64,000 bases of DNA from Octopus vulgaris (taxonomy: Eukaryota): assembly GCA_951406725.2 (NCBI GenBank), contig OX597830.1:21948001-22012000 (forward strand), given 5' to 3'. This document shows positions 20,442 to 62,900 of the stretch, one piece after another. Every line of letters starts with the position of its first letter. Positions within the stretch are counted from its first letter, which is position 1. The notes beneath the pieces are model-generated. The model made no database searches. It was given only the letters and a program-made list of their open reading frames with translations, and had not been told where the DNA came from. Made by a program: the position numbers and the translations under genes.

Positions 20442-23400
20442 CATGTGTCTGTGTGCATTTTATTGTGTCACTATAAATATATAAGGTGCTTAGTCTAGTG
20501 ATTAGGGGTTGCACCCATCATCATAAGATTGTGATTACAATAAAAAACATTTTATCTCATGTCGCTTTGTGATCACTTTGACACCTGATATGTGGCACCT
20601 GTACAGGTAATGCCAACATTATGGAGACAGTGAGCTAATCTACAGCACATACATTTGATCACTAGAAACAGATAATTTTGTGCAGGTTATTCAGTAAGAA
20701 ACTGCAGAACCCTCTGTCTCAGACTTGATACTACCATAATTATATCATATTATACAAGACCCCCTTCAAAAATTAATGACAATGGGATTACACCTAGAAA
20801 GTTCTCCTCCGGGCAAGGTTGTTTATGGAAGACCAGTAGTCGCCCATGCATACCAGCCACTCCTCTCCACACCGCCAATGTTATCCAAGGGAAAGGCAAA
20901 GGGGCAGATACAGCTTGGCACCAGTGACATCACAACTTATTTCTAAAGCTGAGTGAAGTAAGCAATGTGAAATAGTGTCTTGCTCAAGAACACAACACAC
21001 AACCTAGTCTGGGAATCAAACTTACTACCTCATCATTGTGAGCCTAACACTCTAACCACTGAGCCATGTGCCTTCAGACACACACACACACACACACATG
21101 AACCATAGTCATTATTTGCAAGTGAGTATGACACTAGTAGAATGTACCATGCTTTTGCTAATTGCGTTAGATTGTCATTGTAGATCTGAGCATACATAGA
21201 CACCCCCTTATCCCTTCAACCAGCAGAACATTGTGGATGTGACAGCTGAAGAGAGGGATAGGGCTGCACCAGTATTAGACTGGTACTCATTTACAAGGTT
21301 TCAGTCAGCCTAGGGCTGTAGTTGGAGACACTTGCCCAAGGTACCTTGTAGTGGGATTGAACCCAAAGCCATGTGGTTGGGAAGCAAACTTCTTACCACA
21401 CAGCCATACATACGAATTAAAAAGAAAAAAAACATTCTTGAGCAATGATCACCACTCCAATCCTATTCGACAGCACTCAACTCCACTTCGCTCCACTTAC
21501 CATCTTCACAGTAATAACTGTGCCATTGAATTTGGTCTGGTTGAGATGACGGATGCAGTTGTTTGCGTCTTCAGTTGAAGCCATAATCACAAAACCATAA
21601 CAGCGACGACTTGGAATCCGTGCAGTTGTCACAACTTTGGCAGCAACAACCTGGAAAAAAAAAACAATTGAGAAAAACCAAAGTTAGAAAACCCACCATC
21701 ATTGACAAAAGGTGGTTATAAGGTGACGAAAGAGATTAAATGAGACAATTGTTCATTTTGCATACATTTTACAAGCACAGGGGTGGCCATCCATACACTC
21801 TGAGTGGCCACACCTGTGCTTTGAATGTAGAGTTCAGTTGTTTTTCTAAAATAGAGTACTGGTGTGACATAAAAACCACTCAGTCTACTCTGCAAAGTGG
21901 TTGGTGTTAGGAAGGGTATCCAGCTGTAAAAACCACGCCAAAAGAAACAGTGAAGCATGGTGCAGTCTTCTGCCTAGCCAGACCCTGTCAAACCATCCAA
22001 CCCATACCAGCATGGAAAGCAGACATTAAATGATGATGATGATAATGAGAGTTACTTAATCCAGCATCTTCATCTTAACGCTATGGTACTACATTACCAT
22101 CATCAGTTAACATTCATTTTCTGTGCTGGTATGGGTTGAATGAGTCGACAATGCCATATCATTTTACAGAGCTAAGCTGGTGTAGGCTGGATGATTCAAC
22201 AGAAGCTGGTGAACTGGTGGACTGTACCAAGCTTCAATGTCTGCTTTGGCATAGTTTCTTCATCTGGATGCTCTTCCTAATGCCAACCACTTCACAGAGT
22301 ATACTGGGTGCTTTTTATATGGCATCAGCACCAGTGAAGTCACCAACTAACTTGCAAGACAAGACCCCTCGATACTGAGTAGTATGGAGCGAGGCGGCTT
22401 TATGCCAGGTAATATCATCATCATCCATCACTTTGAATCCGGGTTTTGTCCCTGTTAACAGGGGTGGCTGGATCTACCTCAATACCATACAACTGCCCTC
22501 ACACCATCTCACTATCTTGCCCAGTTTTGGGTGTGCTCCCTTCTCAAGCCAACCCTCCCAATCTTCTCCTCCACATGTCCTCTTCACATTTTCCTCAGTC
22601 TACCTCACTCTCGCTGTCCATTTACCTCAAAATCTAGCACCCTCTTCAGAACATGCTCAGCGGGGCTCTGAAAGGGATCTCAGGGAGTAGCATCCCAGCC
22701 ATCCTGAACTAGTTTTCCATCAAATTTCTTAAAAATCATGGTAGGGGCTTTGTTCTCGGGACCACTGATGTCTAGAAACTGAGGTTGGCTGTAAGCAAGG
22801 GCATGCTCCCCATAGAAAATCCAGCTACGAAAAAGTCTCATGATAATAGCAAAGGAGGTAATGAGAAGTTTAAATATGATAGAGAGACAAGAACAGATGT
22901 CTAGCCAAAAAAGAGATACATGGTTTCCCCCCCATTGGAGAAGAGAGAAGATGGTGGTGAAGACTATATGATCCAATTTTACAAATCTAAGCCATTTACA
23001 TGAAATTTTAAAACTGAATGTGAAGCAGATAAAATATTTATATTTTTAATTTAAATAATTTACAAACCCATCCATGTTTGACAAACAGTGCTTTGAGATT
23101 TGCAGCTTTGGTATTGGCTTTGAGTCCAGTAATCCACAAATTACAAGTTTTGGCAGATTCTACAAAGGAAAAAAAAAGAAAAAAGAATTTTGGTTTAATA
23201 ATCTATCTTATAATTTCATTATAATTTCAAAAATATTTAACCCTTTAAAACTCAATGCAACTGGTAAAAGTCTAAATGTTGTTCACAGTAAAATCTGAAA
23301 TTATTTTTTGTATAATTTCCATTCCAGTTTAACATATTGAATAGTTGTATGTAGTAGTCAATATTAAACATGTAGCAGTGCTCATATCTGTAGATTTGAA

Positions 23401-26400
23401 GGGAAATTAAAAAGGTTTAAATGTTGTGGCTGCATGGTTAAGAAAGCTTGCTTTGCAACCATGTGGTTTTGGGTTCAGACCTGCAGTGCGACACCTTGGA
23501 CAAGTGTCTTCTACTACAACCCTAGGCCAGCCAATGCTTTGCAAGCGAATTTGTTAAATAGAAACTTTGTGAAAGCCCATCGTGTATGTGCATGTGTGTG
23601 TGTGCGCGCGCCTGTGTGTGTCTTAATATTTGCCACCCCACTACCACTCAACAACTGCTGTTGGTTTGTTTATGGCCATGTAACTTAAGTGTTCAGCAAA
23701 AGAGAGCAATAGCAAAAGTAGCAGACTTCAAAATAAGTACTGAGGTTGATTTGTTAAACTAAACACCTCACAGCAGTGCCCCAGCATGGTCGCAGTCCAA
23801 TGACGAAAATAAGAGAAGATAAAAAGAAGATCAGTTTCAAGTTTTCCATGATGAGATGAATTGCTGGGATCTGCAATCCAGTGTCTTTCCATTTGTCACA
23901 TTAAGATATCCTCATATCATCCGTGAAAGCCAATTAGATGCTTATTTTATTTGTTATTATATTTACGGAGGTGTACTTGCATAGCAAGTGATTTGATCTG
24001 AGATCGTGTGCTGAAACGTAAACAATTGCAGCGTGGAAGGTGTTTGTAAGCCATTTAAGAAACACACAAAAGCCGTTCAATTCACTTCAACATTTAAGTT
24101 TATTTTGTCAGTGAACAGGTCGCGGATTTTAGCGACAAAAATATTTTGACAAAATAAACTTAAATGTTGAAGTGAATTGAACGGCTTTTGTGTGTTTCTT
24201 AAATGGCTTACAAACACCTTCCATGCTGCAACTGTGTTATATTATATTATATATATTATTATATTTGTGTGAAAGCGCATGGCTCAGTGGTTAGAGTGTC
24301 GAGCTTACGATCGTGAGGTTCAGAGTTCAATTCCAAGACTGGGCTGCGTGTTGTGTTCTTGAGCAAGACACTTTATTTCACGTTGCTCCTGTTCACTCAG
24401 CTGTAGAAATGAGTTGCGACGTCACGGGTGCCAAGCTGTATCGGCCTTTACCTTTCCATTAGATAACATTGGTGGTACAGAGAGGGAGGCTGGTATGCAT
24501 GGATGACGGCTGGTCTTCCATAAATAGCCTTGCCCAGACTTGTGCCTCGGGGGGGAAACTTACTTGGTCATTCATGACCAAAGGGGGTCTCCTCCTCAAT
24601 TATATTCTACATGGGAACTGGAAAACCAGTGCTATGAGTCCTAAGACATATGACTGGTGTGCAGGAAATGATGATGATGATGGCTGGTGATAAGGAGGGA
24701 TGTAGAGGCTATCAAGAAAATCGTCATGGGCTCACAAGGCTAACCCATGCTTTAGCAGGAAAAATGGCCTTAAAACACTTGCTTTTTTCACAGCATGTAG
24801 TAACTAAAGTAGTGCTGGATTAACAATTAATCAAAATAAGGACCTGCTTAGGGCATCGAGGGAAGAGAACACCACAGAAATGGTAAATGGTTTACAGCAC
24901 AAAAGAAATCACTTTAAACTTGCTAAAATAATATTAAGGATGCCTTATCTCTACTAAGTGTAGAAGCAGATGTGTTACACAAGATTAATCTTGAGGATCT
25001 GATCAAAGACTCTGCAATTTAAAAAAAAGTAGAAAACCTTTCAAATATAAATAAAGTGGAAGCACACAAAAATAAAGATTATTTTCCACCTTACTGTTAG
25101 TTTTGTTTCATTTTGAAGAATGAAAATTTATTTTATGGTTTATCATTGTTTATATTTTGAATTACATATATATGAGAGGCACCAAAATCTTGTAAGTGCC
25201 AAGGGCCTCTCTTGGGTTTTAATCCACCTCTGAACTAAAACCAGTATTCTTTTATTCTTTTATTTGCTTCAGTCGTTTGGCTGTGGCCATGCTGGAGCAC
25301 CACCTTTTAGTCGAACAAATTGACTTTTTCTTTGTAAGCCTAGTACTTATTCTATCAGACTCTTTTGCCGAACCGCTAAGTTACAGGAGATGTAAACACA
25401 CCAGCATCGGTTGTCAAGCGATGGTGGGGGCACAAATACAAACACATACATACGACAGGCTTCTTTCAGTTTCCGTCTACTAAATCCACTCACAAGGCTC
25501 TGGTTGGCTCGAGGCTATAGTAGGAGACACTTGCCCAAGGTGCCAGGCAGTGGGACTGAACCCAGAACCATGTAGTTGGTAAACAAGCTACTTACCACAC
25601 AGCCACTCCTGCACCTAAGATTTGGACCTAAAAGATTATAACAATGTATATGGTAAGAGAACAAAGGATTCTTACTTGGTGGTTTACCCTTCTTTGTTTT
25701 AGATGTGTCTTCAGAACTGGAAAAAAAAAAAAACAGAAATATCACATTAGAATATTGACAAATCCAGGCAATATATCCAACATAAAATTATTACGTGTGA
25801 CATATCACAAGCAGTAAAACAGTTAGAATATTTACATGTGATGTATGAATTACAGACAATACAACATGGTTAGGATATTGCTACATGTGACATCATCATC
25901 ATTTAAGGTTCACTTCTCCATGCCTGCATGGGCCAGATGGAATTTATTGAGGAAGATTTTCTTCTACAGCTGAGTACCTTTCATGTCATCAACCCTCATC
26001 AGTTTCCAGGCAAGATAATATTTCTCAATGGGCAAACATGTTTTTCGTGGAAGACTGGAGACAAACAACACTGCTTGTATGATGATGCTCATTTGCAATC
26101 ATCACATGATGACAAAACAAGAATATAAACACACACATACGTACATGTGAGTGTGTATATAGTACACTTATTATTATTAATAATGGTAATGGTATCTATT
26201 TAACTTTTATATTGTGCGGTGCAGTACTGTACTGTACTATACTATATTATATTATGTTATATTATATTATATTATATTATATTATATTATATTATATTAT
26301 ATTATATATATACAATGGGCTTCTTTCAGTTTCTGTCTATCAAATCCACTCACAAGGCTTTAGTCAGGCTGGGGCTATAACAGAAGACACTTGCATAAGA

Positions 26401-29400
26401 TACCTTGCAGTAGGACTGAACCTTGTAGCCATGCGGTTCAGAAATTTGCTTCTCAACTACACATCCACGCTAGGAAAAGGGACGGGACTATTAGAGAAAG
26501 AGGACAGAGTTATTAAGAGAAGGGAGCAGGGCTCCTGGAAAAAGAGGACAAAAATATGTAAAGAATCCAATAATAAACTTCACCTTTTGGTCTTGACATC
26601 TTTATTATCTTTCTTCTGTTCAACCTTCTTATCCGTCTTTTGGTCTTTCTGGCTTTTAGCACCAGCATCAGCTTCAGTAGTGCTGACAGTGGTGGACGTT
26701 TTGCCATTTGCTTGCTCACTTTTCTTTTCATTTGTCGCTAAATCAGCATCCAGGTCATTGTGGATGTCATCAACGAGTACAATTAACGACTCGTTCTCTT
26801 CAGATTTTGCAGCTGTTTTCAGCAGCGAAGACTTGTTAATGACTTTCGAAGCGTTAGACGCTGCATCTGGCTCTGAAGTACTTTGGTTTAAGTTATTGTT
26901 ATTTTTGTTTTCTGGCTTTTCTGACACCTGATCTGAAGAAGAACCATTGCTGGCCTCTTTAGAACCAGCATCTTCAAGCTTGCTTTCCATCTGTCCTGCA
27001 GGGTCACTGGTCACTGAAGAAGAATTATTGGTGTCTACGGTTTGATCTTTACTCTCAGCCTTGATCCCTGACTCCACTTTGTCTCCAGTGTTCAACTCTT
27101 CCTAAACAATATACAAACAATTGTACGCATTAAGAGCACTACTCAACACATGCATGTAAAGAGATGGAGATTGGAGATGGAGTGTGGAGATGACGGTGTC
27201 TATAATTGTATCATTTTGTTTCCAATACTTGTTTCTTTGTCTCCTCTATAATCAATTCTGTAAATATCCTACTGGCTTTGTAATTTGTCCTTGCAATATG
27301 CCCTCGTCCATGGCCCTTGCAGTCAAGAAAAGGAAATATTATTGTTGCTGTTGTTGTTATTGAAGGCAGTGAGCTAACAGAATCTTCGGTGTGTCAAATA
27401 AAATACTATGCAAACATTTCTTCAGGCTCTTTATGTTCTAACTTACTACTTGTACTTGTGGCGACATTCACCCTGGGCGGGTTGAGTCGGCTTCTTCTAC
27501 CGAGTAGTGTCAGAGCTATGCCGTCGGGAACTTCGGTTCTTGGTAGGGCCACCTAAGGAGGATTGGTCTGACACCGAGTGGTACTAGGATCACAACCCGG
27601 CAGACGGGGCTCTGGTGAAAATCCTCGGAGTGTCTGTTTTGGCAACCGGCAGCTCCTCGGTCGTTCTGTCCCTGCGACTGCGGACAATCTGCAGCAAACA
27701 GGATGTCTCTACATATTCCCACGAAACTTCTTCTTTATGTTCTAAGTTTAAATGCCACTGAGATCAACTTTGCTTCTCGTTCCATCAGGGCCAATAAGAT
27801 AAATACGAGTTAAGCACTAGTAATCAACTAGTTCTCTACTCCCAAAATTTGATACTTTGTACCTATAGCACAAAGAATTATTATGAGTGTTAAAACAGAA
27901 TCATTAAAGTATCAGAGTAAACAAAAAAATGCCTTGTAGTATTTGCTCTGGTTTTTCGCCTTCTGAGTTCAAATCTGAGCAAGGTAAACATTGCATTTGC
28001 CAAGGTCAGCTTTGCCTTTCATCCTTTCAGGGGTCAAAAAAAATAAGTATCAACTGAGCACTGGGGTCGTGTCAATATAATCAACTAAACCCCTTGCTCG
28101 AATTTGCTGGCCTTGCACCAAAATTTGAAACTATTATTATTATTATTATTATTATTAAGGCATAGATCTGGTAGAATCGTTACTGTGCTGGGCAAAATGC
28201 TTAGAAGTATTTCATCCATCTCTAGGTCCTGAGTTCAAATTCCACCAAGGTCAACTTTGCCTTTCATCCTTTTGAGGTCGATAAAATAAGCACCAGTTGA
28301 GTACTAGGGTCAATGTAATCAACTTATCCCCTCCCCTGAAATTACTGGCCTTGTGTCAAAATTTGAAACCATCATCATCATCACAACAATAATAATGTTA
28401 CTATCATATTAGCAATATTATTATTATTATATTGATAATTTTTACTTGTCACAAGGCTGCAAATTTAGAGGAAAAAACAGTCATTCAAATCAACCCAATG
28501 CTTTACTGATATTTATTTAATCAACTAAAAAACCTTTTTTTTAATTCTGGCTGGATTTGAACTCTGATGGTAAAAGAGGATAACTAAATACTGCAAGACA
28601 TTTATTCCACCACTACTACCACCACCAAAAACAACAATAACAACAACACTAATCTAAGGCAATGTAAGAATCTAATGGCTGTGAAATTAGAGTAGGTTGA
28701 CTGCAGGTAACAGTCATCTCCTGATTTCTAGTTCTACTACTACTTCTACCACCACCACCTCCTCCTCTTCAAATATACTGATGCCTTGAACCAACAAGGA
28801 AGTCTCTATGTGGTCAATCAACCAATTAGAAGTGGTATCCAAATCTTCCTCCAATCTAAAATAAGGAAAGGACACGAAGAACAGACACTTCTGGATACTC
28901 CCAAAAAGACAAGGATGGCCATGGATGGAATGTCACTGGTCGCAAGTCTGCTTAATCAAGTTTGATCTAGAGCTAAATAGCAAAAAAAAAAAAAACCTCA
29001 CACATGTCACAAGTGAGCAGAAAAGACATCCAGCTGTCAGAAAAAACAATTTGTCAATCCACCAATGTTATAACAAGTGGCAAGTAAATTACTGAATCAG
29101 AAAAAATGCAGGATAAAAACAGAAAAATTTTCAAATTATCTACACTGACCTTCTTTTCAGCCACGTTTACAGATTCCTCTAGAAAAAAAAAAAGAAAGAA
29201 AAATGCTTTAGAAATATGATACAAAAAAATTTAACAGTTTTGTTGTTTGCTGAAATTTACTCCCTTCATTTTCGAAAATAACAAAGGATTTTTTAGTAAA
29301 ATAACTTTGTTGTTAATTCATTATTAAGCTGGAACATAAGCAGTCATGAAGTTTTTATTTAACCTTTTAGCATTCAGGCCATTCGGTCAAATGCAACACT

Positions 29401-31476: not shown

Positions 31477-34400
31477 GTCATCCCATAAATAATGTGGTTT
31501 TTTCAAATGCATGAACTAAAACTCTGATGGACACGGGATAAACTACCTGCATCAACTCGCTATGAAAGCAGTTGTACTTATTGTTAGTGCAAGTTTTAAA
31601 AAGGCAGATCGATTTTGACAGTTATTTTTTCAAAGCTATAATGGAAATGACAAAGGAGCATATTTGGCATATTTTGTTTTATGAGTTCAACAAAGGCAAC
31701 AACACAACAGAAAGTGTGAGGAATATTAATGCAGTATATGGGGATCAGATAATAAGTGCAAACCAGTGTCAATGGTGGTTCCAGAAATTCTGAGCCTGAA
31801 ACTACAACCTACAAGACGAACATCGTCCTGGAAAATCTGCAGAGCTCAATGAGGATGTCCTGTAACCCCTGGTGGAACAAAATCCCATTGTAACTACTGA
31901 GGAACTAGCAGAGAAGCTTGGATTTGGTCATTCAACCATTGACTGACACCTGTGTGCCATCGGAAAACTCAACAAATTGGATCAATGGGTTCCTCACAAA
32001 CTTTCCAAGTCTAATCTTGTGCAGAGAGTGAATGTGTGTTCTCCTTTGCTGTTATGTCTCACGAATGAACATTTTCTTGGACCGAATAGTGACTGGTGAT
32101 GAGAAATGAGTTCTCTATAAAAATGTCAAGTGCCAAAGACAGTGGGTAGGAAAAGGAGAAACACCAGCACCCCAAGCTAAAGAAGGTCTTCACCCATATA
32201 AGGTGTTGTTGGATATGAAAGGTTTAGTCTATTTTGAACTTTTAAACTTAAACCAAAAGATAACAAAGGAGATCTACAGCAAGCAGCTTGAGTAGCTAAA
32301 GTCAGCACTAGAAGAAAAACGACCATCTTTGGTTTCAAGATGAAAGATGCCCTTCCTTCAGGATAGTGCTCAGCCACATACAGCAAGGATAGGATTCCAG
32401 AGGCTGGAGCAGTTTGAATAGGAAATGATACCCCACCCACCATATTCATTGGACATTGCCCCATCTGATTATCATTTATTCTACACTCTTCAAAATCATT
32501 TGAACAGAAAAAACATGAATTTTGTAGTTGAGGTCAGAACAGTACTGGAGGAGTATTTTCCATTACGGGCAAGTGAATTCTGGAAGAGGGGCCTTGCAAG
32601 TCTACCAGATAGATGGAAGAGCATTGTAGAAAATGGAGGAGAGTATATTTTGGATAAAAAAAGAACTTTGTTTATATTGATTTTTAAAAATAAAAGAAGT
32701 ATAAACAAACTGTATTATTTATGGGATGACCCAATATATATATATACATAACCAAAATGTGTTTGAACTGCTAGCAACTCACCACCAGCATATAACTTGA
32801 AGCGAAAAGAAAATGTAAATCTGGTAACTTTTGAAGCATGTTGTGGTGACAGAACTGTTTAACCACTTCTAATTAAAATCCTGACATAATCTTAATCCTT
32901 ACATAGCTTTCATACCTACATTCCTACAATAAACTACTTTGGTTTTGAAGCAGAACAATGCCAATTGTCATTGAACCATAGGAACCAAATACATGTTACT
33001 GGAATATATTTATTCTGGATTAATTGAACCATATGAACTAAATACATGTTATTAGAATACCTTATCAATTCTAGATTCTATTAAAAACTGAGAGATTAAG
33101 TAAATTCCGTAAGATATTTAACCTGTTGTCATTTTCAGGACTTTTGTCAACTCAGCATAATCTTTTTTACTATAGGCACAAGGCTTGAAATTCTGGGGGA
33201 GGGGGCTAGTCGATAACCTGAACTCAGGTGCTTGACTGGTTTATATTTTATCAACCCTGAAAGGATGAGAGACAAAATCAACATCTACAACAATTGAATT
33301 CAGAATGTAAAGAGGGAAGAAATGCCACTAAGATTCTGTCAGCTCACTTCTTCGTCATCATCATCACCACCACCACCACGTTCGGATGGTGATTTTTACG
33401 TGCCACCAGCACAGGTATCACAACTACAATCTCCATTTGATTTTGATTTTTGATGTTGATGTACTTGACTCAATAGGTCTCCTCAAGCACAGCAGGTCGC
33501 CCTACAATCCAAGGTAAGCACAGCTTGGAATGTTTTTTTCTATTCACATTGTTTTGAATTATTCATACATTATCTCAAAGCATTGAGATTTTTATCATTT
33601 AACTGAGGACTGGCGAACCAGCTGGCTGATCTGGCAGAGTTTTTACAGCTGGATGCCCTTCCTAACACTAACCACTCCGAGAGTGTAGTGGGTGCCTTAC
33701 GTGCCACCGGCACAAGGGCCAGTCTGGCAATGGCTACACTCAAATGGTGTTCTTTATGTGCCACCCGCACAGGAGTCAATACAACAGGCTTCTTTGAGTT
33801 TCTGTCTACCCAATCCACTCACAATGCTTTGGTCAGCCCGAGGCTACAGTAGAAGACACTTGGCCAAGGTGGCAAGTAGTGGGACTGAACCCAGAACCAT
33901 GTGGTTGGGAAATAAGCTTCTTACCACACAGCCACAACCCACAAATCATGAAAGGCAAAACAGGATTCGAATGGAGAACACACAGAACTGGAACAGATAC
34001 TACAAGACAATTAAAGCAGGTACTCTACAAAAAGAACAAGAACAAGGAAGAGAAGGAAAAAAGAACAAGAGGAGGAGGGAAAAGAAAAAAGAGAACAAAA
34101 AAGAAGCAAAGTCCATCCTCTCCTCACCGTGGTGGGGACGCTGGCAACGAGTAGTGTCAGAGCTATGCCGTAAGGAACTTTGGTTCCTGGTAGGGCCACC
34201 CAAGGCGGATTGGTCTGACACCGAGTGGTATTAGGGCCACAACCCGGCAGACAGGGCTCTGGTGAAAATCCTCGGAGTGTCTGCTTTGGCAACCGGCGGC
34301 TCCTCGGTCGTTCTGTCCCTGCGTCTGCAGACAATCTGCGGCAAACAGGATGTCTCTACATGTGGGATTGTTGGGGACCGCTTATGAAATCCACATATTC

Positions 34401-34564
34401 CCACAAAACTTCCTCCAACTTCTACGAGATACCTCGAGGGTGGTAGAAGAAGCCGACTCAACCCGCCCAGGATGAATGTCGCCACAAGTAAGGAGGAGGA
34501 AGATATATTGAAATAGTGAGTAAGGGAACATGGGTAGTTGCAGTAACCAACCACAAAACCCAAC

Positions 34565-34601
<37 letters not shown>

Positions 34602-37600
34602 CAATACCTTTTGGTCTTTCCTTCTTTACTGTCTCTCTTCTGCTCAGTTTTCTGGATTTTAGCAGGGGTGGCACCTTCAGTGGTATTCGTAGTGATGCCC
34701 TTTTTGCCACCGGCCAGCTGTTTAATTTTCTTTCCGCTTGCAGTTAAATCAGCATCCAGGTCGTTAGGGATATCATCATCAAGTACAATTATTGACTCGT
34801 TCTCTTCTGATTTCACTGCTGTTATTCAAGAATGGAAAGCCCTGGTTAATAATTTTCAATGCAATGGTAGGTAATAGTGTGTGTTGGTGGCGGTGGCAGG
34901 GTGTTTGTGATGAATAGTAGTGTATTGGTTGTAGTAATGCAGGTGGTAGAATACTGGTGGATGGTAGTGTGTAGGTGATAGTTGTATATTGGCAGTAGTG
35001 GAGTGGTGGTGGTGGTAGTAATAGTAGAGTAGTTGTGGGTGGTCCTGTACAGGTAAAAATAGTGGTGGTGGTGGTAGCGTGTTGGTGGTAGTAAAGTGTT
35101 AGTTGGTATTAGTTTATTTGTGGTTGAATTGTGTTAGTAGAAGTAGAAGGTTGGTGGTGAATGATAGTGTATTGGTTGTAGTAGTGGCTGTGGTAGTATG
35201 ATGAGAATGCAAGTGTGGTGGTGGTGATGTATTATTGCATAGTAGTGGTAGAAGTGTGTTGATGGTAGTGTGAAACAAGTGGTAATAATGTGTTGGTAGT
35301 GGTACAAAATAAGCAGCTGTAGCGAAAGAGATGGGAGATCAGATAAGAACAGGAGAAAGAAAGAGAGAGGGGGTAAGTAGCCCCAACACACACAACCTGT
35401 ATGTAGTTACTCAACCTGCTAGAAATAGCAGCCATTTCTCGATCAAATCATACTCTACCATCTTGAAAAAAAAAAGAGGACACATTGAATAATGCAGACC
35501 AAAATATTCTTAAAAGGACAACATGATACTGGGTGGAATACTTTTGATTACAGGGAAGCTCAATCAAGACTAATTAACAGTAACTAGTTAGCAACTGTGG
35601 TTTACAATTTCAACACAAGGCCTACAGTTTTGAAGGGTCTAGGGTAACATGATACCACTGATCCTAGAACATAACTGCAACTTTATTTTATCAACCCCAG
35701 GAAGGCGGAGAGTAAAGATGACCCCAGCAGAATTTGAACTTGGAACACTAAGTCTGCCTCATCATCAACATTTAATATCCACTTTTCCATGCTTGCATGA
35801 GTCAGAGAGGAACTTTTTAAGGCAGATTTTCTATGCTAGATGCCCTTCCTTTTCACTAGCCCTCACCTGTTTCCAAGCAAGACAATACTTCCCCATGGCT
35901 AGACATGTTCTCACAGAATACTGGAAATGAATGCAACTGCTCGAATGGAAAATGACATTCATTTACAACTTTCACATGATGTCAATACAAGGAGAGTCAA
36001 GCATCCACACACTTACACACGCATATATACATACATGTGTATATGTGTTAAGTGATGAAATAGAAGAGGTGAGCAGTTATGCATATCTTGGTCAAGAAGT
36101 GACTATGAGGCATGAGATGGAGAATGAGATCTCGCGAAGGGTAAGAGCAGGATGGAGAGCATTCAACTCAATGAAGGATGTGCTGAAGGCAAACCTAGAC
36201 AAGGCAAGTTGCGCCAACCTCTTCAACAGTACAGTCTTGCCTGCAATGCTATGTGCATGAGAGACTTGGGCCTTGACTAAGAGAGAACAACAACATCTGC
36301 TTATGGCGCAGAGAGCCATGGAAAGGTCAATGCTGGGAATTTCGCTAAGAGATCACATCCAGAATGAAATCAAAGGCAGAACTGGAATGAAGGACATCAT
36401 CGCAGAATACCACCATGCAAAGAAGCTATGACAGACTGGTCATGTCGCAGGTTCACAGATAATCAGTGTACCTGTGCCGTTGTCAAGTGGTACCTGCGCG
36501 AGCAGAAGAGACCACTCGGAAGACTGCCAATCAGGTGGAAAGATGTTTGGAGCAACATGGAGGAGAATGGCAAGAGCACAAGGGGAACGTAGCAAATGCT
36601 GTGGCCAGCAGATCCAACTCAGCGACAACAGCCTGGCTGATCCAGGTGATGTTTGTGTGTGTGTGTGCATATTTTTTTATATATTACTCAGTATCAACAT
36701 ACTAATTGGTGGACAAACCTAGGATTTATAAATTGGACTGGTGACAGCTTGTTAGGTTTGGATTACTTGGATTCCATCTAACAAAGGATAAATTCGGTAG
36801 CCTCAGGTATCTACCTGTACTGAGAGCTTATTAAGTTTTTTGCCTGGATTATCAATTCCTCTATGTATATATATATATACACACACAAAAGGTTTCTTTC
36901 AGTTTCCATCAACCAAATCCACTCACAAGACTTTGGTTAGGTTGGGACTTATAGTAGAAGACACATGCCCAAGTTGTCACAAGGCATTTTGGTCGATGCC
37001 AAACAATTCTGCCAGCGCATCAGCTTATAGTAAACAATAATTGTAACAATACATCCGAGATACAAACATTTGATCTTTTGCACTGGTTATCCCGACCAGT
37101 ACCTCATCAAGCTCTGGCCAACACCCCACCAAACTCTGGCCAAGACTCCACCAAGATTTCAACCAAACTGTAACAATTAAAAACCAACAAACCTAAGGAT
37201 TCAGCAGTGCCATCTTTCTTTGGTAGCTGTACAACGAAAGAGAAAGTAGAGGTCAGTTAAGAGGTGGAGAGTAAAATGTTCAGATCATTGGAACAATATA
37301 AGACAGCGGATAAAATGAAGTCTTTGTCTTCACAGATGTGCAGAGAAGTGTATGAATAGGATGAAGTCTTTAACAGGAATTTTTTTTTTTGGGGGGGGGG
37401 GTTTATACACACCTTGCAACATGTATGTATATAGTCTGTTTATAGAAACATCAAAACTGAGGTGTTTTTGTAAGTTTAATAGTTTGAACAAGAATAATGT
37501 CATTAAGTAAACAAAAGAGCCCTGTGAGATCATTCGATCTGCTAGAAATAGCAGCCAAATACCTTTCTAATTACACTCTAGAAACTTAGAAAATGTAGTC

Positions 37601-46801: not shown

Positions 46802-49714
46802 TATTCTCAGACATGACAGTGTTGGGACTTATATACAATGGAAGCTATAACAACACTATGAAATTACAACAGAAAAAACAATGGTATAGGCACACCCTAG
46901 AAAAGGTCACAGAAAATGAGAAAGTAACCATACTCTGGGATATGCCAATACACACAGTGAAATCAAGGCTAATAGACTGGATGTAGTTGTCAGAAATCAC
47001 CAAGAAAAAAGATGCCTTCTAATCGATGTATCAATACCAACAGATGATGTTTCTCTAAAAGAAATGGAGACACTTTCAAAATACAAAGATCTGGAAATAG
47101 AGGTAACTCGAATGTGGAGCCTAAAATCAGAAACAATTCCTATAATAGTAGGTGCATTAGGTATGATAAAAACATTCAGACAAATACATAACAAAAACAT
47201 CAGGACTTACAAATATATAGCACTACTATATACAGAAAATAGCACTACTAAGCGACACACATATCCTATGTAAAACACTTTCAATACAGTGGAAATAAGA
47301 GCACCACAAGCCATGGCACATACCCAAGGCACACAGAGCTGTGATCAGTGCAGTGAAAGCATGTGATAAAACTAAGACTACTGAATAATAATAATAACTG
47401 GTTGGACCCGTGAAAAATTCACATGAAACATAAAAAATGTAAGCATATGTAAATTGTGTGCCAGTGCCATGAGAAATGTTTCTATATTGTAACAGTTACA
47501 GAATATAGAAAGTGTAAAACCAGTAACCATATATAATCCAACCAAAATATCTCAGTTACACAAACATAAGCAGAATTACTATTTAGCCTTAAACAACATC
47601 ATACGAGGGACGTTCAATAAGTAATGCCTCTGACCCACTTGCAGTTGTTTGATCTAGGTGAAATTTTGCATGTGCAATCATTTATATCTCTATAGAGTAA
47701 GTGGCAAATTACAGCTCTGAATTAATTGTGGTTTCTGATTTACAGGTGTTTGAACCGAGTCAAGTGTGAAATGGAGCCTGTTGAGTGTCAAGCAGTGATC
47801 CGGTTTTTGTATTTGAAAGGACGCACACCACGGGAGACTTTTGATGAAATGAAAGTAACTTATGGTAATGATGCCCCATCATATGACCTTGTAAAACGCT
47901 GGCATCGTGAATTCAAACATGGTCGGAACTCTGTGGAAACAGCTCCCAGATCTGGTCGCCCCCTTCTGCCATTGATGAGGCATCTGTCCGTCAAGTTGAG
48001 GCTGCTATTTTGGAAGATCGACGCATAATTATTCGCCAAATAGCCCATGAGGTCAAGATTAGTACCGGGTCTGTGGAAACTATCATTCATGACCATTTGC
48101 ATATGCAAAAGGTGTCTGCCAGATGGATTCCCAGGTTGCACACGCCTTTCCAGAAGCAAGAACGCGTCGAGAGCTCGAGGGTGAATTTGGAGATGTGCCA
48201 AGAAGATGAGTCAAAATTTTTCAAAAGACTGATTACACAGGATGAAACCTGGGTCCATCACGATGATCCAGAGACCAAAGCCCAGTCAATGCAGTGGAAG
48301 CACCGTGACTCACCCCCTCCAAAGAAGGCAAGGGTGCAGCCCTCCACTGGCAAGGTCATGCTCACAGTCTTCTGGGACCAGGACGGAGTAGAGATGACAG
48401 ATTTCCTGGCGAAGGGTACCACAATTGCAGGAGCCTATTATGCTTCACTTTTGAGGAAATTAAGAGAAGTTATCAAAATCAAGAGGCGGGGCAAGATCAG
48501 CAAAGGCATCCTCCTCCTGCAGGACAACGCTCCGGTCCACAACTCGCTTGTCGCCAGATCAGAAGCACAGGCGTATGGCTATGAACTCCTCCCCATCCCC
48601 CCTACTTTCCTGACCTTGCACCCTCTGATTTTCACCTCTTCCCAATCATGAAGTTGTTTTTGAAAGGAAAGCGTTTCCCAGATGATGCAGCCTTGATTTC
48701 TGAAGTCACGTTGAGGTTGGAGGACCAAGCTGGGTTCTTCTACAAAAACGGTCTCCAGAGCCGCATCAAACGATGGGAGAAATGCGTAACTCTGGGTGGT
48801 TCCTATGTAGAAAAAGACTAACTGTGCCAAGTTTTGTTCCTCTACTGCTATGGGAAGTGGGTCAGGGGCATTACTTATTGAACGCCCCTCGTACATATTC
48901 AAAGAACCTTCTTGGTTTAGTGGTACGGAACTTTCTTCTAGTATTCTTTTACTTGTTTCAGTCATTTGATGGTGGCCATGCCGGAGCACTGCCCTTTAGT
49001 CAAAGAAATGGACCCCTGAACTTATTCCCTGTAAGCCTGTTGCTTACTCTATGAGTCTCTTCAGCCGAACAGCTAAGTGAAGGTGCATGGCTTAGTGGTT
49101 AGGAGTATTCGGCCTACAATCATAATGTCATGAGTACAATTCCCAGTGATGTGCTGTTCTTGAGCAAGGTACTCTACTTCACCTTGCTGCAGTCCACTCA
49201 GATGGCAAAAATGAGTTGTAACTGTAATTCAAAAGGGCCAGCCTTGTCACATTTTGTGTGAGGCTGAATATCCCTGAGAACTATGTTATGGTATGCATGT
49301 CTGTGGAGTACTCAGCCACTTGCACGTTAATTTTATGAGCAGACGGTTCTGTTGATCAGATAAACAGGGGCCTTGTTGTTGTAAGTGACAGAGTGTCATT
49401 TTTTTAAAAAAGAGTGAAAGCAAAGGAAATGTTCCATATTGTAAGGCAAAAATGTCACGTGTTTAGTCATAAGCAGTGAAAGCTAAGATGAAATAATTGC
49501 TATAATGCCATGTAGTGACTTTGCCCTGGACTCACAATCAGTTTGATAACAACAGCCTGCACATAGGTGTTTATCTGTCTTTGATTTAACAATGTCTATG
49601 TATCTGTGTATCAACTTTTCTTTCGATCTATGTATCTACTTTTCTTGCGATGTGATAAACATTTAAAAACACAAAACAAACGCTGTCACCACTCACTGTC
49701 TCTTTCATTCACTC

Positions 49715-50220: not shown

Positions 50221-52247
50221 CCTTTCTACATTAGGCATGAGACCTGAAAGTTTGAGGAGAGGGGTATGTTGATTGCATCAACCCTAGTATTCAACTGGTA
50301 CAGTTATCTTATTGACCCCAAAAGGATGAAAGGGAAAAAAATCAACCTCAACGAAATTTGAACTCATAATGTAAAACCAGAAGAAATGTTGCTGAACATT
50401 TTACAATAACAATAATAATCCTCTCTTCCATAGACTCAAGGCCTGAAATTTTGGTGGGAAGGGCTAATCGAACCCCCCCCCCCCAGTACTTTAGTGGTAT
50501 TATTTTATCAATGCCGAGGTTGACTTTGCCTTTCACCCTTTCAGAGGTCAATAAATTAAGCACCAGTTGCATTTTGGGATCAATCTAATTGACTGGCCCC
50601 ACTCCCCACAAATTTCAGGCATTGTGTCTATAGTAGAAAGGATTATTTTATCAATGCTAAAAGGATGAAAGGCAAAGTCAACCTCAGTGGAATTTGAACT
50701 CAGAACACAAAAACAGGTGAAATGCCACAAAGCATTTTGCCCAGTGTGCTAACAATTCTGCCAGCTTGCTACCTTTTTTTTTTTTTTTTTTTTTTTTTTG
50801 CAATAATAATAATAATAACCTTTCTACTATAGGTACAAGGCCTGAAATTTCAGGAGAGAGGACTAGTTGATTATACTGACCCCATTGATCAACTGGTACT
50901 TATTTTATTGACCTTGAAAGGATGAAGGGCAAAGTTGACCCTGGCAGAATTTGAACTCGGCACGTAAAGACAGACAAAATACCGCTAAGCAGTTTGCCCA
51001 CCATGCTAATGATTCTTTTCTACTCTAGGCACAAGGCCCGAAATTTTGGGGGAGGGGTACCAGTTGATTAGACTAACCCCAGTACACAACTGGTACTAAT
51101 TTATCGACCCTGAAAGGATGAAAGGCAAAGTCAACCTCAGCGGAATTTGAACTCAGAACATAAAGACAGACGAAATACCGCTAAGCATTTTGCCCAGCAT
51201 GCCAATGATTCTGCCAGCTTACCGCCTTTGCACTAATAATAACAACAATAAGCTATACTCACCACACTTTCAGCCATATTTGAATTGTCTACAAAAGAAA
51301 AAGAGGGAATAAAGAAAAACTTTTAAAAGCTTGAAAATGAAATATCTGAACAAACATTGTTACTTTCAAATAAACAGTAAGTTATAAACTCTTGAAAAGG
51401 TTGTTTCCTGATTTTCCACTCCACTACAGACAAATTACATTGGTCAATAAGTATTTTTCATCAAGCATATGTCAAGGTATACTCAGTGTAGTTTTTAATG
51501 CTGATTTCAAATACACAATTAGTTTTTTTTTGACATCACGTACAGTTTTCATGAGAAATTTTTTGTTTTGGTTTTAGCTCATGTGTGGAGGCGCATGGCT
51601 TAGTAGTTAGGGTGCCAGCATTATGATCGTAAGATTGTGGTTTCGATTCCTGGACTGGGCAACACGTTGTGTCCTTGAGCAAAACACTTTATTTCACATT
51701 GCTCCAGTCCACTCAGCTGGCAAACATGAGTAACGCTGTGATGGACTGGTGTCCCGTCCAGCTGGGGAACACATACGCCACAGAAACCGGGGCCCATGAG
51801 CCTGGCTAGACTTTAAAAGGGCGCACTTATTATTTATTTTTAGCTCATGCATTATATAGAGCTTCCAGTTGATGACATATATGCATGTATTACATTTACA
51901 TCATGGAAACATACCTTTAAAATAAACTGCATTATTCATTGCTGCATAGTTCAGAGGCAATATTTCATCATCTTAAATCAACCAATCAAAGTTTTGTCTG
52001 ATGAAATAGGTATTTCAACATCTTAAATTGTCGTCATAATTGGTCTGATGAAATATCTCATCAAATTCAATATAAGTGTAGACGCAGGAGTGGCTGTGTG
52101 GTAAGTAGCTTGCTTACCAACCACATGGTTCCAGGCTCAGTCCCACTGCATGGCACCTTGGGCAAGTGTCTTCTACTATAGCCTCGGGCCGATCAAAGCC
52201 GTGTGAGTGGGTTTGGTAGACAGAAACTGAAAGAAGCCCGTCGTGTG

Positions 52248-52288
<41 letters not shown>

Positions 52289-55200
52289 GTATATGTTTGT
52301 CTCCCCAACATCGCTTAACAACCGATGCTGTTGTGTTTATGTTCCCGTAACTTAGCCTAGTACGATAGAATAAGTACTAGGCTTACAAAGAATAAGTCCT
52401 GGGGTCAATTTGCTCGACTAAAGGCGGTGCTCCAGAATGGCCGCAGTCAAATGACTGAAACAAGTAAAAGAATAAAAGAGTATAGTATAACTGTTTGTAT
52501 CTATTTCCTTACTTGCTTTACAGTGTTAACAATGTCAAGACAGTGTAGAAATTGTTTTGTTATGTCTGCAGACAATTTATTGTAAAAGTTCAAAAATGTA
52601 CAAAAGAAGATTTATAAACTATACATTGTCTGTTCTCTTGGAGATCAGGACAAGTTATGGACACCACATTTTGTCTGCTCAGCTTGCTCAAATGGCTTAC
52701 GTGACTGGTTCATTAAGAAGAATGGCAAAAGTCCATGCCTTTTGCCATTCCAATGATATGGAGGGTGATGAAAGACCACTTTAATGACTGCTATTTTTGC
52801 AAAATAAATGTCACAGGATTCTCTATGAAGAATAAACACAAAATTGTGTATCCCAATTAGGATTCTGCAATGAGACCTGTGCCTCACAATGGAAGTCTGC
52901 CAATTACAGTTCCACCAGATGATGGTATTGAAACATCAGATGATGATGCTGACTGTCACGATAGTGCTGCCAAGGAAGATTACATGGCTGATGATGATAG
53001 CTTTGAACCTCAGAAATTTTCCCAAGCTGAACTGAATGACCTTGTCAAAGACCTATCTCTCTCAAAAGATAAAGCAGAATTGTTGGCATCAAGACTGAAG
53101 GAGAAGTATCTGCTAGAGTATGGTGTTCATATAACTTATTTTTGGCAGAGAAATGTGTTTCTACAAACATGTTTTTCAGTTGAGAGCTTGCTTTGCTTTT
53201 GCAGTAACATCGATGGACTTTTCCATAATGGTAATTTGAAACTCTCCATTCCTACTGCACACTCTGTTCATCTTCATGAATCATGAAGAATATGGAACTT
53301 TTACATCATGCCACTGCCTATGAAAGATACTCATGGAAAATAGATGGAGATTTAAAAATCATTGGAATGTTAATGGGAATGCAGTCAGGTTTACTATTGT
53401 TTCTCGTGTCTATGGGATAGTCGGGTAACTGACAGACATTATTCGGAATCAAACTGGCAGACAAGAACATCATACAAGCCAGGACTGTCTACCATCAAGA
53501 ATACATCTCCTGTAGATCCATGTAATGTCCTACTGTCTCCTTTACACATAAAGCTTGGACTGATGAAACAAGTTTCTAAAGACACTAGGGAAGAGAAATG
53601 CCAGAAGGTTTGAGTATATTATAGACAAGTTTGCCAAAATCACACAGGCGAAGTTGAAAGAGGGTATCTTTGTCGGACCCCAAATTAAAGAAGTACTCAA
53701 AAATGTCAACTTCAAGACAATACTGGACGAACTGAAACAGCCTGCCTGGAAAGCTTTCAATTGGATCTGAGAGAATTTCTTGGGCAACAAGAAGGAAATG
53801 AACTGCAAGGATGGCATCAAGAATCTTCTGATGTTACTCAGCAATGGGTTGTTGCATGTCACTGGAAGTTCACTTCTTGGACTCCCATCTGGATTTCTTC
53901 GCAAATAACCTTGGAGTAGTGTCTGATGAACATGGTGAAAGATTTCACCAAGACATTAGTGCTATGGAGAAACAGTACCAAGGCTTCTGGAATGACAGTA
54001 TGCTGGCTGACTACTGCTGGATACTTTACCATGATCAACCAGATTAGGAACACCGCAGGAAATCTAAATCTCAATGTTTCTAACTTTGTTGTTCTAACTT
54101 TGTCTGTTTTGTCCATCCCATTTTTTTGTGTATTCACTCTTTGTAGAATGATAATGAGGATTTTTAACTCAATAAACTCATTTACTTTCTAAAAATGATA
54201 TGTCCTTAATTATTACGTTAATGATTTCATATATACAAATATGCAAATATTTGCATGTATCGACTGAAAAACTGATATACGCTGCATACAAATGGAGTGA
54301 AATTTTGAAATCAGCATGAAAAAATAATCTAAAAAAAGTTGGGTTGGCATTCATAATGAGAATAATACATTTAATTTTGTTGACCAGTGTTATTACTGGT
54401 GTTGACATTTATCTCCAGGTCAACTCTGATCACACAGACCTATGACAAAAAGCACTCCACCCATGACCACCATCTCTTTTGTGTATCCAATATGCCTTTT
54501 TTTTTATAAGATGGTTGGAGAGCTGTGATTTTAAGATTTGGCTGCTATTTCTATTGGGTTGAAAAACTATGTAAGAGACCTATGTTGCTGGTTAGTTTTT
54601 GGTGATGCTGTGCTATTGTTGTTGTTGATCTCCAAGTCAATAATAGTCATTATCTTCCAGAATTACATTATTCTAATGTATCTTCTTGTTATTTAAGATG
54701 GTAGTGTATGACCTGAAGAGCGATTTGGCAGCTATTTCTAGCAGGTCAAAAAACTGAGTAAGAGGGTCTTTCACTGGTTAGTTCTTGATATTGCTGCTGC
54801 TGCAGCTGCTATTGATCCCTGAGTGTTTTAAACCTACAATCGAAGGCATTCTGGTCATAATCTCCCCACAACTACATTATCTAATGTGTTTTTTTTCTAT
54901 TTAAGATGGTAGTATGTGTTCTGAAGGAAATTTTGGCTGCTATTTCTAACATATGGAGCAACTACATAGTGTTTGGTTCACTGCAACTGATGCTTATGCA
55001 ATACACTAGGTAAGCTTATTTCGATAATGTCAGTTAAGTTGGCATGTATTAGATGAAACTTACCGAGACAATATTCTATGAACAGATGCTCTTGTTGTCA
55101 CCAACCTTTAACTGTTTTGTCAAGTAAATAATTTTTATTCCACTGGTCCTCACATGAAACTGATGTAACTACCAAACTACAGATGATATTGTTTACAAGT

Positions 55201-61724: not shown

Positions 61725-62900
61725 TTAATAATTTAATAAAAATTAAAGTAAAATGTACTGTTACTCACCAATAATGAATGATATTGATTTAAGACGATAA
61801 TGATGAAAATAATGAAGGTAATGACTGCACAACAAAGAAAATTTAAAGCTCTTCAGGTGTTTTAGGGGATGTCATATTTTCATCCAAGGCTTTCTTGGTG
61901 GGTTTGAGGAACATTGTGAGGGGAAGTTGCTGTCGTTGTTTCTTCATGGTGATGAGGAGAGTTTTATACGTCTGCATGACCGAACCATATAGGGATCCCA
62001 TGCTCCCGCCTTCCCTTGAAATTCCTTTGCTATCCTTAAAAGCTCAGACAGACGTTCAATTGCCAGGCCCACCTCATACTCCTCTTCCTCTGGATCTGAC
62101 GCTTCCTCCTCCTCTTTGTTGGCAAACTTCATTAACTCCAACAAATCTTTGTCTATCGGGGTTTCAAAGTGGGCATCCATGAGGTCGTTGACCTCATCTT
62201 CTGTGATGTCAAAACCTTTGCCAGTTTCACCACATTGTTAACAGCCTCATGCTGAATATCTTCAGGTGAGAAGCCCTCGTAGTCCTGGACATACTCTGGC
62301 CACACCTTCTTCCAGCAAACAATGAGGGTTTCTTTGCTGTCAATGGTCTTGGTTGCAGTTCTTCAGTACCTTCTGTTCTGTCTCCTCTGTCAAACTGCTG
62401 GTATAATTTCCGAGCTTTCTCACAGATGATTTTATCCCTCAGGGAGATGTTTTTCTTCTTGCAGTCACTGATCCACAATGCCAAGGCAGATTCCATCCTG
62501 ACGAAGTGCTTATTTCTCACTATCATTATCTTTTTGGCAGTTTCACAGAAACTTACTGCTACGATAGTCCTGATCGCCATCTCGTTTGTCTTTACATAGC
62601 GTATGATGCTTTTGTTGACAACATAATAGTGACCAACTGCAGCATAACTTTTACCTTCTGGGAACATACCCAGCAGTTGTGCCTTCTCATGGAGCGTCAT
62701 AACCTTTTTCTGGTGCTTAGGTTCACTGCCAGAAGTTTTAGAAGGTGTAGGGAATTTGGGCAACATCTTAAGGCTTTAATAACACATTGTGAAAAACACA
62801 GACTCAACAAAATACTGGAGAAAGCTACTGGACGCAGTCTTTCCAAACAAAAAAACTTCATTGCATCTAATATTGCGCTTACCACCAATGGGAAATTGAG
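61573..62900 (-). mobile_element. Tigger/pogo transposon, internally deleted
   Basis: ORF 62227-62766 CENP-B-type HTH (KVMTLHEKAQLL...SYAAVGHYY...MESALALWISDC); TA followed by cagtagttccccagtatttgcaggggttatgttccaag TIR at 61571. Confidence 0.85.

Follow-up and report, generated by a model that had tools for sequence, protein, structure and literature searches.

A short inverted Penelope-like terminal-repeat insertion with a probable G3-C8 hammerhead motif in Octopus vulgaris

A 64,000-nucleotide stretch of Octopus vulgaris DNA (the window; contig OX597830.1, positions 21,948,001 to 22,012,000) was found to carry a hairpin that we read as a short, folded-back insertion derived from the terminal repeat of an abundant Penelope-like element (PLE). 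Its G3-C8 motif would be a likely real but slow hammerhead ribozyme needing a dimer or an element protein, and this copy was probably killed by the change G12A. Taken whole, this reading is considered probable.

The arms of the hairpin (24022-24110 and 24147-24235) were 89 nt long, 98% complementary and 36 nt apart, and the RNA folded with z = -25.5 (0 of 200 shuffles equally stable). An 85-bp hairpin beginning at 24026 had been predicted; the near-perfect inverted repeat was recovered, its arms were longer than stated, and alignment to family copies (span ~23963-24238) carried the element about 60 nt further left. The spacer agreed letter for letter with the predicted reading: GTGAACA (24111-24117), G (24118), GTCGC (24119-24123), an 8-nt loop, GCGAC (24132-24136), AAAA (24137-24140), ATAT and TT (24145-24146). 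Element positions were numbered from the core G3 (window 24111 = 0), and features are collected in Table 1. An Rfam scan of 23500-24800 returned no hammerhead match up to E = 10 and only sub-threshold miRNA-hairpin matches, the latter because of the long hairpin. Directly abutting the element, at 24266-24590, is a repeat headed by tRNA-like sequence (words resembling A and B boxes), and short matches related to this repeat lie at 21047-21080 and 51582-51614.

Table 1. Features of the hairpin and its surroundings in window coordinates.
Feature	Position	Strand	Basis
Left arm: terminal repeat in inverted orientation, between the predicted cleavage position (+36) and the outer end of the tail (+183)	23963..24110	-	Alignment to family copies; same layout in the 6-kb ORF-bearing copy L101
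Tail of ~57 nt, left arm only; equals 5' coding sequence of the element ORF	23963..24020	-	Bimodal 3' ends; ORF runs on past the tail in L231
Right arm, sense copy of the terminal repeat, -8 to ~+127, without tail	24103..24238	+	Alignment to family copies
5' strand of hammerhead stem I; the two arms overlap and join here by 7-8 nt	24103..24110	+	Sequence; 19 exact junction matches in the genome
Core G3-U4-G5-A6-A7-C8-A9 and one inserted G	24111..24118	+	G3-C8 in 94/100 among the matches listed (of 6,548)
Stem II, 5 bp, opening G10.1-C11.1, 8-nt loop	24119..24136	+	RNA fold and covariation
G12A change of the window copy, CpG context	24137..24137	+	Family: G in 99/105, A in 4
Palindromic stem III AATATT, then U17; predicted cleavage between 24146 and 24147	24140..24146	+	Sequence; family copy co-folds as dimer through the palindrome (predicted)
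Stem I, 3' strand	24147..24154	+	Sequence; compensatory changes in sister families
First codons of the element ORF, which breaks off here; start codon lies 92 nt beyond G3	24203..24238	+	L230 and L231 run on into a long ORF
Likely target-site duplication, left copy, 11 nt, AT-rich; overlaps element end by at most 2 nt	23954..23964	.	Sequence; duplicated flanks of ~11-12 nt noticed by eye in several other copies with this junction
Likely target-site duplication, right copy; AT-rich filler of ~17 nt precedes it	24256..24266	.	Sequence
Host-gene exon downstream of hairpin, second half of RRM domain	21480..21653	-	Pfam RRM_1 E = 2.2e-7, above cut-off
Charged open frame of 173 aa, probable exon of the host gene on the upstream side of the hairpin	26583..27101	-	Exon status inferred; no database match

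A 31-mer from the hairpin arm had 7,646 exact matches in the genome, and the core pattern of this family (family A) had 6,548. Among the core matches listed, C3-G8 was present in 0 of 100 and the G3-C8 pair in 94. Further counts were taken from 86 loci (129 arms) among the first 100 places listed on contig C1 in chromosome order; 43 of the 86 loci held a single arm. G12 was found in 99 of 105 arms of this sample and G12A in 4, A13 in 107 of 107 and U17 in 112 of 112, and GAAA was present in 20 of the 25 motifs parsed among the 30 loci most like the window copy. Membership in a family with intact GAAA, as predicted, was thus borne out. G12A occurred at the rate of other CpG guanines (41/635; p = 0.38), which fits its description as a CpG-type transition, and in the window copy the change is that copy's own, ordinary CpG decay. 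G12 is the general base of the hammerhead (PMC8495972), and owing to its loss the window copy is probably dead as a ribozyme. The UUU cleavage triplet had also been offered as a ground for inactivity; the family as a whole has UUU, and the published PLE hammerheads of the PMC4209133 supplement often have U17 and include UUU, so the triplet gives no such reason. None of the 18 subfamily-diagnostic columns of family A fell within the 28 columns of the core, stem II and stem III (p = 0.06 only), and one fell in stem I, where a U-G pair was kept; within-family conservation is weakly informative because copies are neutral after insertion. Contigs of four sequencing runs (four organism labels) covered the motif with no core difference of 10% or more listed, a comparison that bears on presence only. 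Seven loci on C1 (L129, L160, L161, L164, L165, L169 and L187) had a common two-arm junction and right flank, which suggests one insertion re-copied inside a larger repeat.

The repeat was traced to a coding element. Inverted pairs of the repeat 2-4 kb apart enclosed a reverse transcriptase (RT) thumb and a GIY-YIG domain, and in 16 of 19 fetched ORF-bearing loci the motif-bearing repeat lay downstream of the ORF piece on the same strand. In a tandem copy (L231) the motif preceded the ORF start codon by 92 nt and the first ~30 ORF codons formed the 3' end of the element. The predicted linkage to a Penelope RT/GIY-YIG ORF was confirmed by these two results. A 6-kb copy (L101) had the layout of the window copy (an inverted arm with the tail, joined to a sense arm without it) and held an open frame of 1,025 residues with DKSG, SLYP, QxxG and YVDD motifs, a CX3CxxC linker (CQSNCAVC at residue 896) and a GIY-YIG domain above the Pfam cut-off. 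The RT motifs were read by eye. The general RT model of Pfam (RVT_1) gave no match to this frame (P0002), and no match to P0002 was found in PDB. The element is best classed as an EN+ PLE of Neptune/Nematis type, with the repeat as its pLTR, because the CX3CxxC linker stands before a C-terminal GIY-YIG domain; a CX2-5CxxC linker marks the Neptune and Nematis clades (PMC8557442). A single ORF with RT and C-terminal GIY-YIG, the linker, and tandem and inverted pLTRs with a one-sided tail were all found, and both pLTRs were present in 5 of 5 full copies examined of a related family (family B, below).

Other element classes were tried and rejected. A MITE or foldback DNA transposon with equal terminal repeats was excluded by the unequal ends of 39 of 41 inverted pairs, and a non-LTR retrozyme (non-coding tandem hammerhead units) by the copies being dispersed solo or inverted fragments of a coding element. 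Several further open frames were noted. A 19-codon upstream ORF (L231:1180-1239) runs from just after the putative transcription start through the hammerhead to a TGA immediately after the cleavage site. A different, unrelated frame ending in GIY-YIG adjoins a family A copy (L090:7068-8000, minus strand) and probably belongs to another Penelope-like family. An annotated O. vulgaris protein isoform (P0111) contains a stretch 71% identical to part of the element ORF, probably an exonised or mis-annotated repeat.

Two sister families, B and C, had a motif in the corresponding position ahead of homologous ORF starts. Family B was 55% identical to family A over the RT-EN region and had 4,805 matches to its downstream 30-mer; C3-G8 was present in 22 of 22 motifs parsed from 30 loci, with A9C in 19 and C17 in 14. 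Family C had U3-A8 in 92 of 100 among the matches listed (of 2,342). Across families A, B and C, stem I read TCA/TGA, CCA/TGG and CTA/TAG, stem II GTCGC/GCGAC, GTCAC/GTGAC and GTTGC/GCAAC, and stem III AATATT, AGAACT (an imperfect palindrome) and AATT; H17 was U, or C in older family B copies. Covariation was scored on 15 hand-picked copies (6 A, 5 B and 4 C, with duplicates from family A and another copy of C omitted); stem I was left out of the pair count because family C was shifted in the alignment. The 3-8 pair was paired in 15 of 15 copies and stem II in 96% of cells, with double changes at 3 of the 5 stem II pairs, so that the prediction that stem II pairs and covaries held in three families. 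The covariation score was 0.63 vs at most 0.14 for slid-partner controls. The number of pairs changed on both sides was not significant (81/500 shuffles); across these three families, which are related, the covariation comes down to two independent swaps, and relatedness is not taken into account by the shuffle control. A family A copy was predicted to co-fold as a dimer through the stem III palindrome.

The hammerhead fold of the family motif is well supported by comparison, because the sisters carry C3-G8 or U3-A8 at the same position together with compensatory changes in stems I and II, and the fold is likely a real ribozyme. The family shows the features of a minimal type I PLE hammerhead (a Watson-Crick 3-8 pair, GAAA, stem I with U16.1-H17, G10.1-C11.1 after the insert, a palindromic stem III and a pLTR location); the literal CUGANGA consensus is absent from family A, and GAAA is absent from the window copy through G12A. 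Family B looked very young, with many copies ~99% identical, intact frames of 1,312 residues and both pLTRs (L203, L204 and L212; e.g., G000:C5:115840523-115845895). Its young copies have A9C and U17, and some older copies keep A9 and C17; since family B is mostly A9C though young, core letters can drift in active families. A minimal hammerhead with U3-A8 was carried by at least 2,342 copies of family C (L315, L320 and L325; e.g., G000:C1:16753799-16753828).

Copy ends were scored in the 129-arm sample. The 3' ends fell into two groups, at +120 to +128 and at +178/179, the latter being the end of the reference used. Short inverted pairs had exactly one long (tailed) end in 39 of 41 cases, none in two and both in 0. 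By analogy with an element that has two start sites (PMC11167929), the tail in the left arm of the window copy likely marks a second reverse-transcription start site. The 5' ends lay at -30 to -16 in 55 of 129 arms and further upstream in only 7. The base before -23, C where templated, was non-C in 414 matches, and among those listed it was G in 79 of 100 vs 24% expected; a few of these extra Gs could be templated by the partner arm. A reverse-transcribed cap leaves such an untemplated G in LINEs. We infer that the extra G may be a reverse-transcribed cap and -23 the transcription start, an indirect argument, as the sequence before -21 resembles a splice acceptor. With 5' ends near -23 and a cap-like G, the usual template would have been capped and uncut, and copies were likely made from such RNA; uncut RNA is also the main substrate in the Anolis element (PMC11167929). 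A spliced exon as the source of the extra G was rejected: of 30 loci, the 25 that bear the G had no letters conserved upstream. Just before the putative start, L231:1155-1180 and its equivalents hold a branch-point-like CTAAC, a pyrimidine tract and CAG, resembling a 3' splice site, at which read-through transcripts from upstream tandem copies might be spliced.

The same ends were examined for a mark of ribozyme cutting. One arm of 129 began at +34 to +38, the cleavage site, and genome-wide breakpoints were estimated at ~75 for the cleavage position +36, ~35 for +35, ~47 for +37 and ~139 for +40 (from 30 loci classified at each position, by patterns that differed in strictness). Neither the 129 arms nor these estimates gave a clear peak at the cleavage site, +36 lying within the range of its neighbours. 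Family B ends at its own cleavage site numbered ~47 of 4,805, a share like that of family A, counted with no neighbour control. On these counts the genome would seem neither to show nor to exclude cleavage.

The scarcity of such ends and the capped, uncut look of the templates would also suit an element of the same origin whose motif no longer cuts, a hammerhead descendant kept as a structural 5'-UTR element for protein binding, translation control or as a downstream promoter element. Published work leans the same way: insertion in vitro did not depend on cleavage by a PLE hammerhead, no RNA-seq read had its end at the cleavage site (PMC11167929), and minimal PLE hammerheads cleave weakly (PMC4209133). 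We nevertheless think loss of cutting unlikely. The Watson-Crick 3-8 pair was kept through two independent swaps and belongs to the active fold (PMC3088659), and the similar share of cleavage-site ends in family B, where the pair is canonical, means that their scarcity is not specific to G3-C8 (subject to the missing neighbour control).

The preferred reading, a slow ribozyme in a short fold-back insertion, would involve the following steps. The RNA would start ~23 nt before the core and be capped; the element protein would nick both strands of an AT-rich target; two cDNAs would be primed from two start sites on mostly uncut RNA (twin priming) and joined head to head, which in the window copy would have used the self-complementary stem I. 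This scheme of twin priming and head-to-head joining is proposed, from structure only, because one tail per pair matches the two start sites and both-strand nicking of the Anolis element. No twin-priming model specific to PLE inversions was found in the literature searched.

At the junction of the window copy the left arm begins with +36, the right arm begins with -8, and the two overlap within stem I. The stem-I junction pattern had 19 exact matches genome-wide (window included; tail left in 13, right in 5 and unclassified in 1), and a junction at the centre of stem III had 3 matches by a pattern of different strictness. The same sequence would result from annealing at insertion, from a later deletion between direct repeats or from run-off where the RNA was cut. 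The original prediction ascribed the fold-back to template switching at stem I; the exact joint does use stem I, the inverted layout itself is the normal insertion product of the family, and switching is one of three possible origins of the joint. Deletion after insertion is an alternative we judge as improbable as loss of cutting. In it, a longer head-to-head palindrome with two motifs would have lost its centre by slippage between direct TTTGTCA repeats, to give a product identical to the window sequence, and head-to-head copies with both motifs and the TTTGTCA direct repeat were common in the sample. No result speaks against it directly; joining at insertion through the same overlap explains the joint equally well, and many junctions had the filler or other short overlaps typical of joining at insertion. 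Quite unlikely is a course in which the left arm ends at +36 since the template RNA was ribozyme-cut, the run-off cDNA end having annealed to stem I of the partner cDNA. The left arm does begin exactly at the predicted cleavage position, stem-I junctions outnumber those at the stem III centre (by patterns not equally strict), and +36 breakpoints are about twice those at +35 and +37, but the +40 breakpoints (looser pattern) exceed them, and the stem I overlap would place the apparent breakpoint at +36 with or without cleavage. A MITE or foldback DNA transposon, or a miRNA-like hairpin with a hammerhead look by chance, would account for the long inverted repeat, the TA-rich flanks and the Rfam miRNA matches, but is very improbable given the unequal arms with one tail, the variable centres and the many single-arm loci, and is refuted by sequence continuous with the RT-endonuclease ORF.

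Hammerheads in PLE terminal repeats, and U3-A8 cores, are already known. U3-A8 was described as a natural 3-8 covariation by Perreault et al. (2011, PMC3088659), whose text reports only this one, and as a natural variant among PLE hammerheads by Cervera and de la Pena (2014, PMC4209133). The engineered C3G/G8C double mutant is partly active (PMC8495972) and partly rescues a PLE hammerhead (PMC11167929), and G3-C8 is said, as data not shown, to work better when position 17 is not C (PMC3884650); by analogy the U17 of family A may suit G3-C8 function. Like the hammerheads of Cervera and de la Pena 2014 (PMC4209133), those of octopus have a pLTR site, a nucleotide inserted after A9, G10.1-C11.1, GAAA, a short palindromic stem III, U-rich 5' and AU-rich 3' flanks and opposite-strand motif pairs; U17 is frequent there (oyster example UUU), and family C resembles their U3-A8 variant. 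Unlike them, the family A motif has a G3-C8 core (in the rows of Fig. S3 compared, every core has C3 or U3 and cephalopods are absent), G as its inserted nucleotide (H in their consensus) and a longer stem I (7-8 bp).

The Poseidon element PAc of Anolis carolinensis (Frangieh et al. 2024, PMC11167929) likewise has its hammerhead where pLTR and ORF meet, AT-rich targets, and two sites within the ORF start at which reverse transcription begins and which define the tail; in PAc both strands are nicked, uncut RNA is the main template and the C3G/G8C double mutant is partly active. The octopus element differs from PAc (PMC11167929) in that the swap is natural rather than engineered, the tail is ~57 nt long, the ORF start lies 92 nt beyond the core instead of within stem II, and the linker is of the Neptune/Nematis Zn-finger-like kind. 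It shares with Neptune/Nematis (Craig et al. 2021, PMC8557442) the RT, the CX2-5CxxC linker and the C-terminal GIY-YIG, and also 5' truncation, partial tandems, an inverted 5'-truncated partner, a tail at one end and a bias to microsatellite or TA targets. This placement follows the descriptions in PMC8557442, without named reference sequences, and does not separate Neptune from Nematis. In the portion of the PMC8557442 supplement covered, two Octopus rows of 4 occurrences were Naiads, and neither family's core string was found.

The literature searched, which covered few subscription papers, gave G3-C8 only as an engineered mutant and in no natural hammerhead; Lünse 2017 may list G3-C8. That work (Lünse, Weinberg and Breaker 2017, RNA Biol 14:1499) reportedly, to go by its title, concerns small PLE-associated hammerhead variants that cleave as dimers. 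We advance tentatively, as a possibility, that family A is a natural, high-copy and still cleaving G3-C8 hammerhead, undescribed before and missed by CUGANGA searches and Rfam, that one octopus PLE lineage carries three Watson-Crick 3-8 pairs (C-G, U-A and G-C), and that its insertions record capped, uncut templates and two-site twin priming. If true, the octopus copies would be a natural test set for the role of PLE ribozymes and for the formation of PLE inversions. G8, the source of the general acid, was for a long time regarded as invariant. A G3-C8 family of thousands of copies beside C3-G8 and U3-A8 sisters would show selection on the pair, not on the letters, and motif searches would undercount hammerheads. 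The three motifs would offer a ready comparison for whether and when PLE hammerheads cut, and the cap-like G and the one-tail-per-pair rule give genome-scale support to the recent two-start-site model of PLE insertion.

Frames on the minus strand to either side of the hairpin fit a single host gene, whose RRM frame we take to resemble SAFB/SLTM; protein searches with the presumed host exons gave no match. The motif lies on the plus strand and the RRM-protein gene on the minus strand (Pfam RRM_1), as the predicted antisense orientation requires, so the pre-mRNA would hold the hairpin only, and the antisense motif could not act there as a ribozyme. The locus is a probably inactive intronic copy without sign of host function. 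Two similar charged open frames on the minus strand (26580-27101 and 34382-34825) suggest an internal exon duplication in the RRM host gene. Elsewhere in the window, frames at 47911-48651 (plus strand), 52861-53286 (plus strand) and 62227-62775 (minus strand) presumably represent mariner-type and other DNA-transposon fragments.
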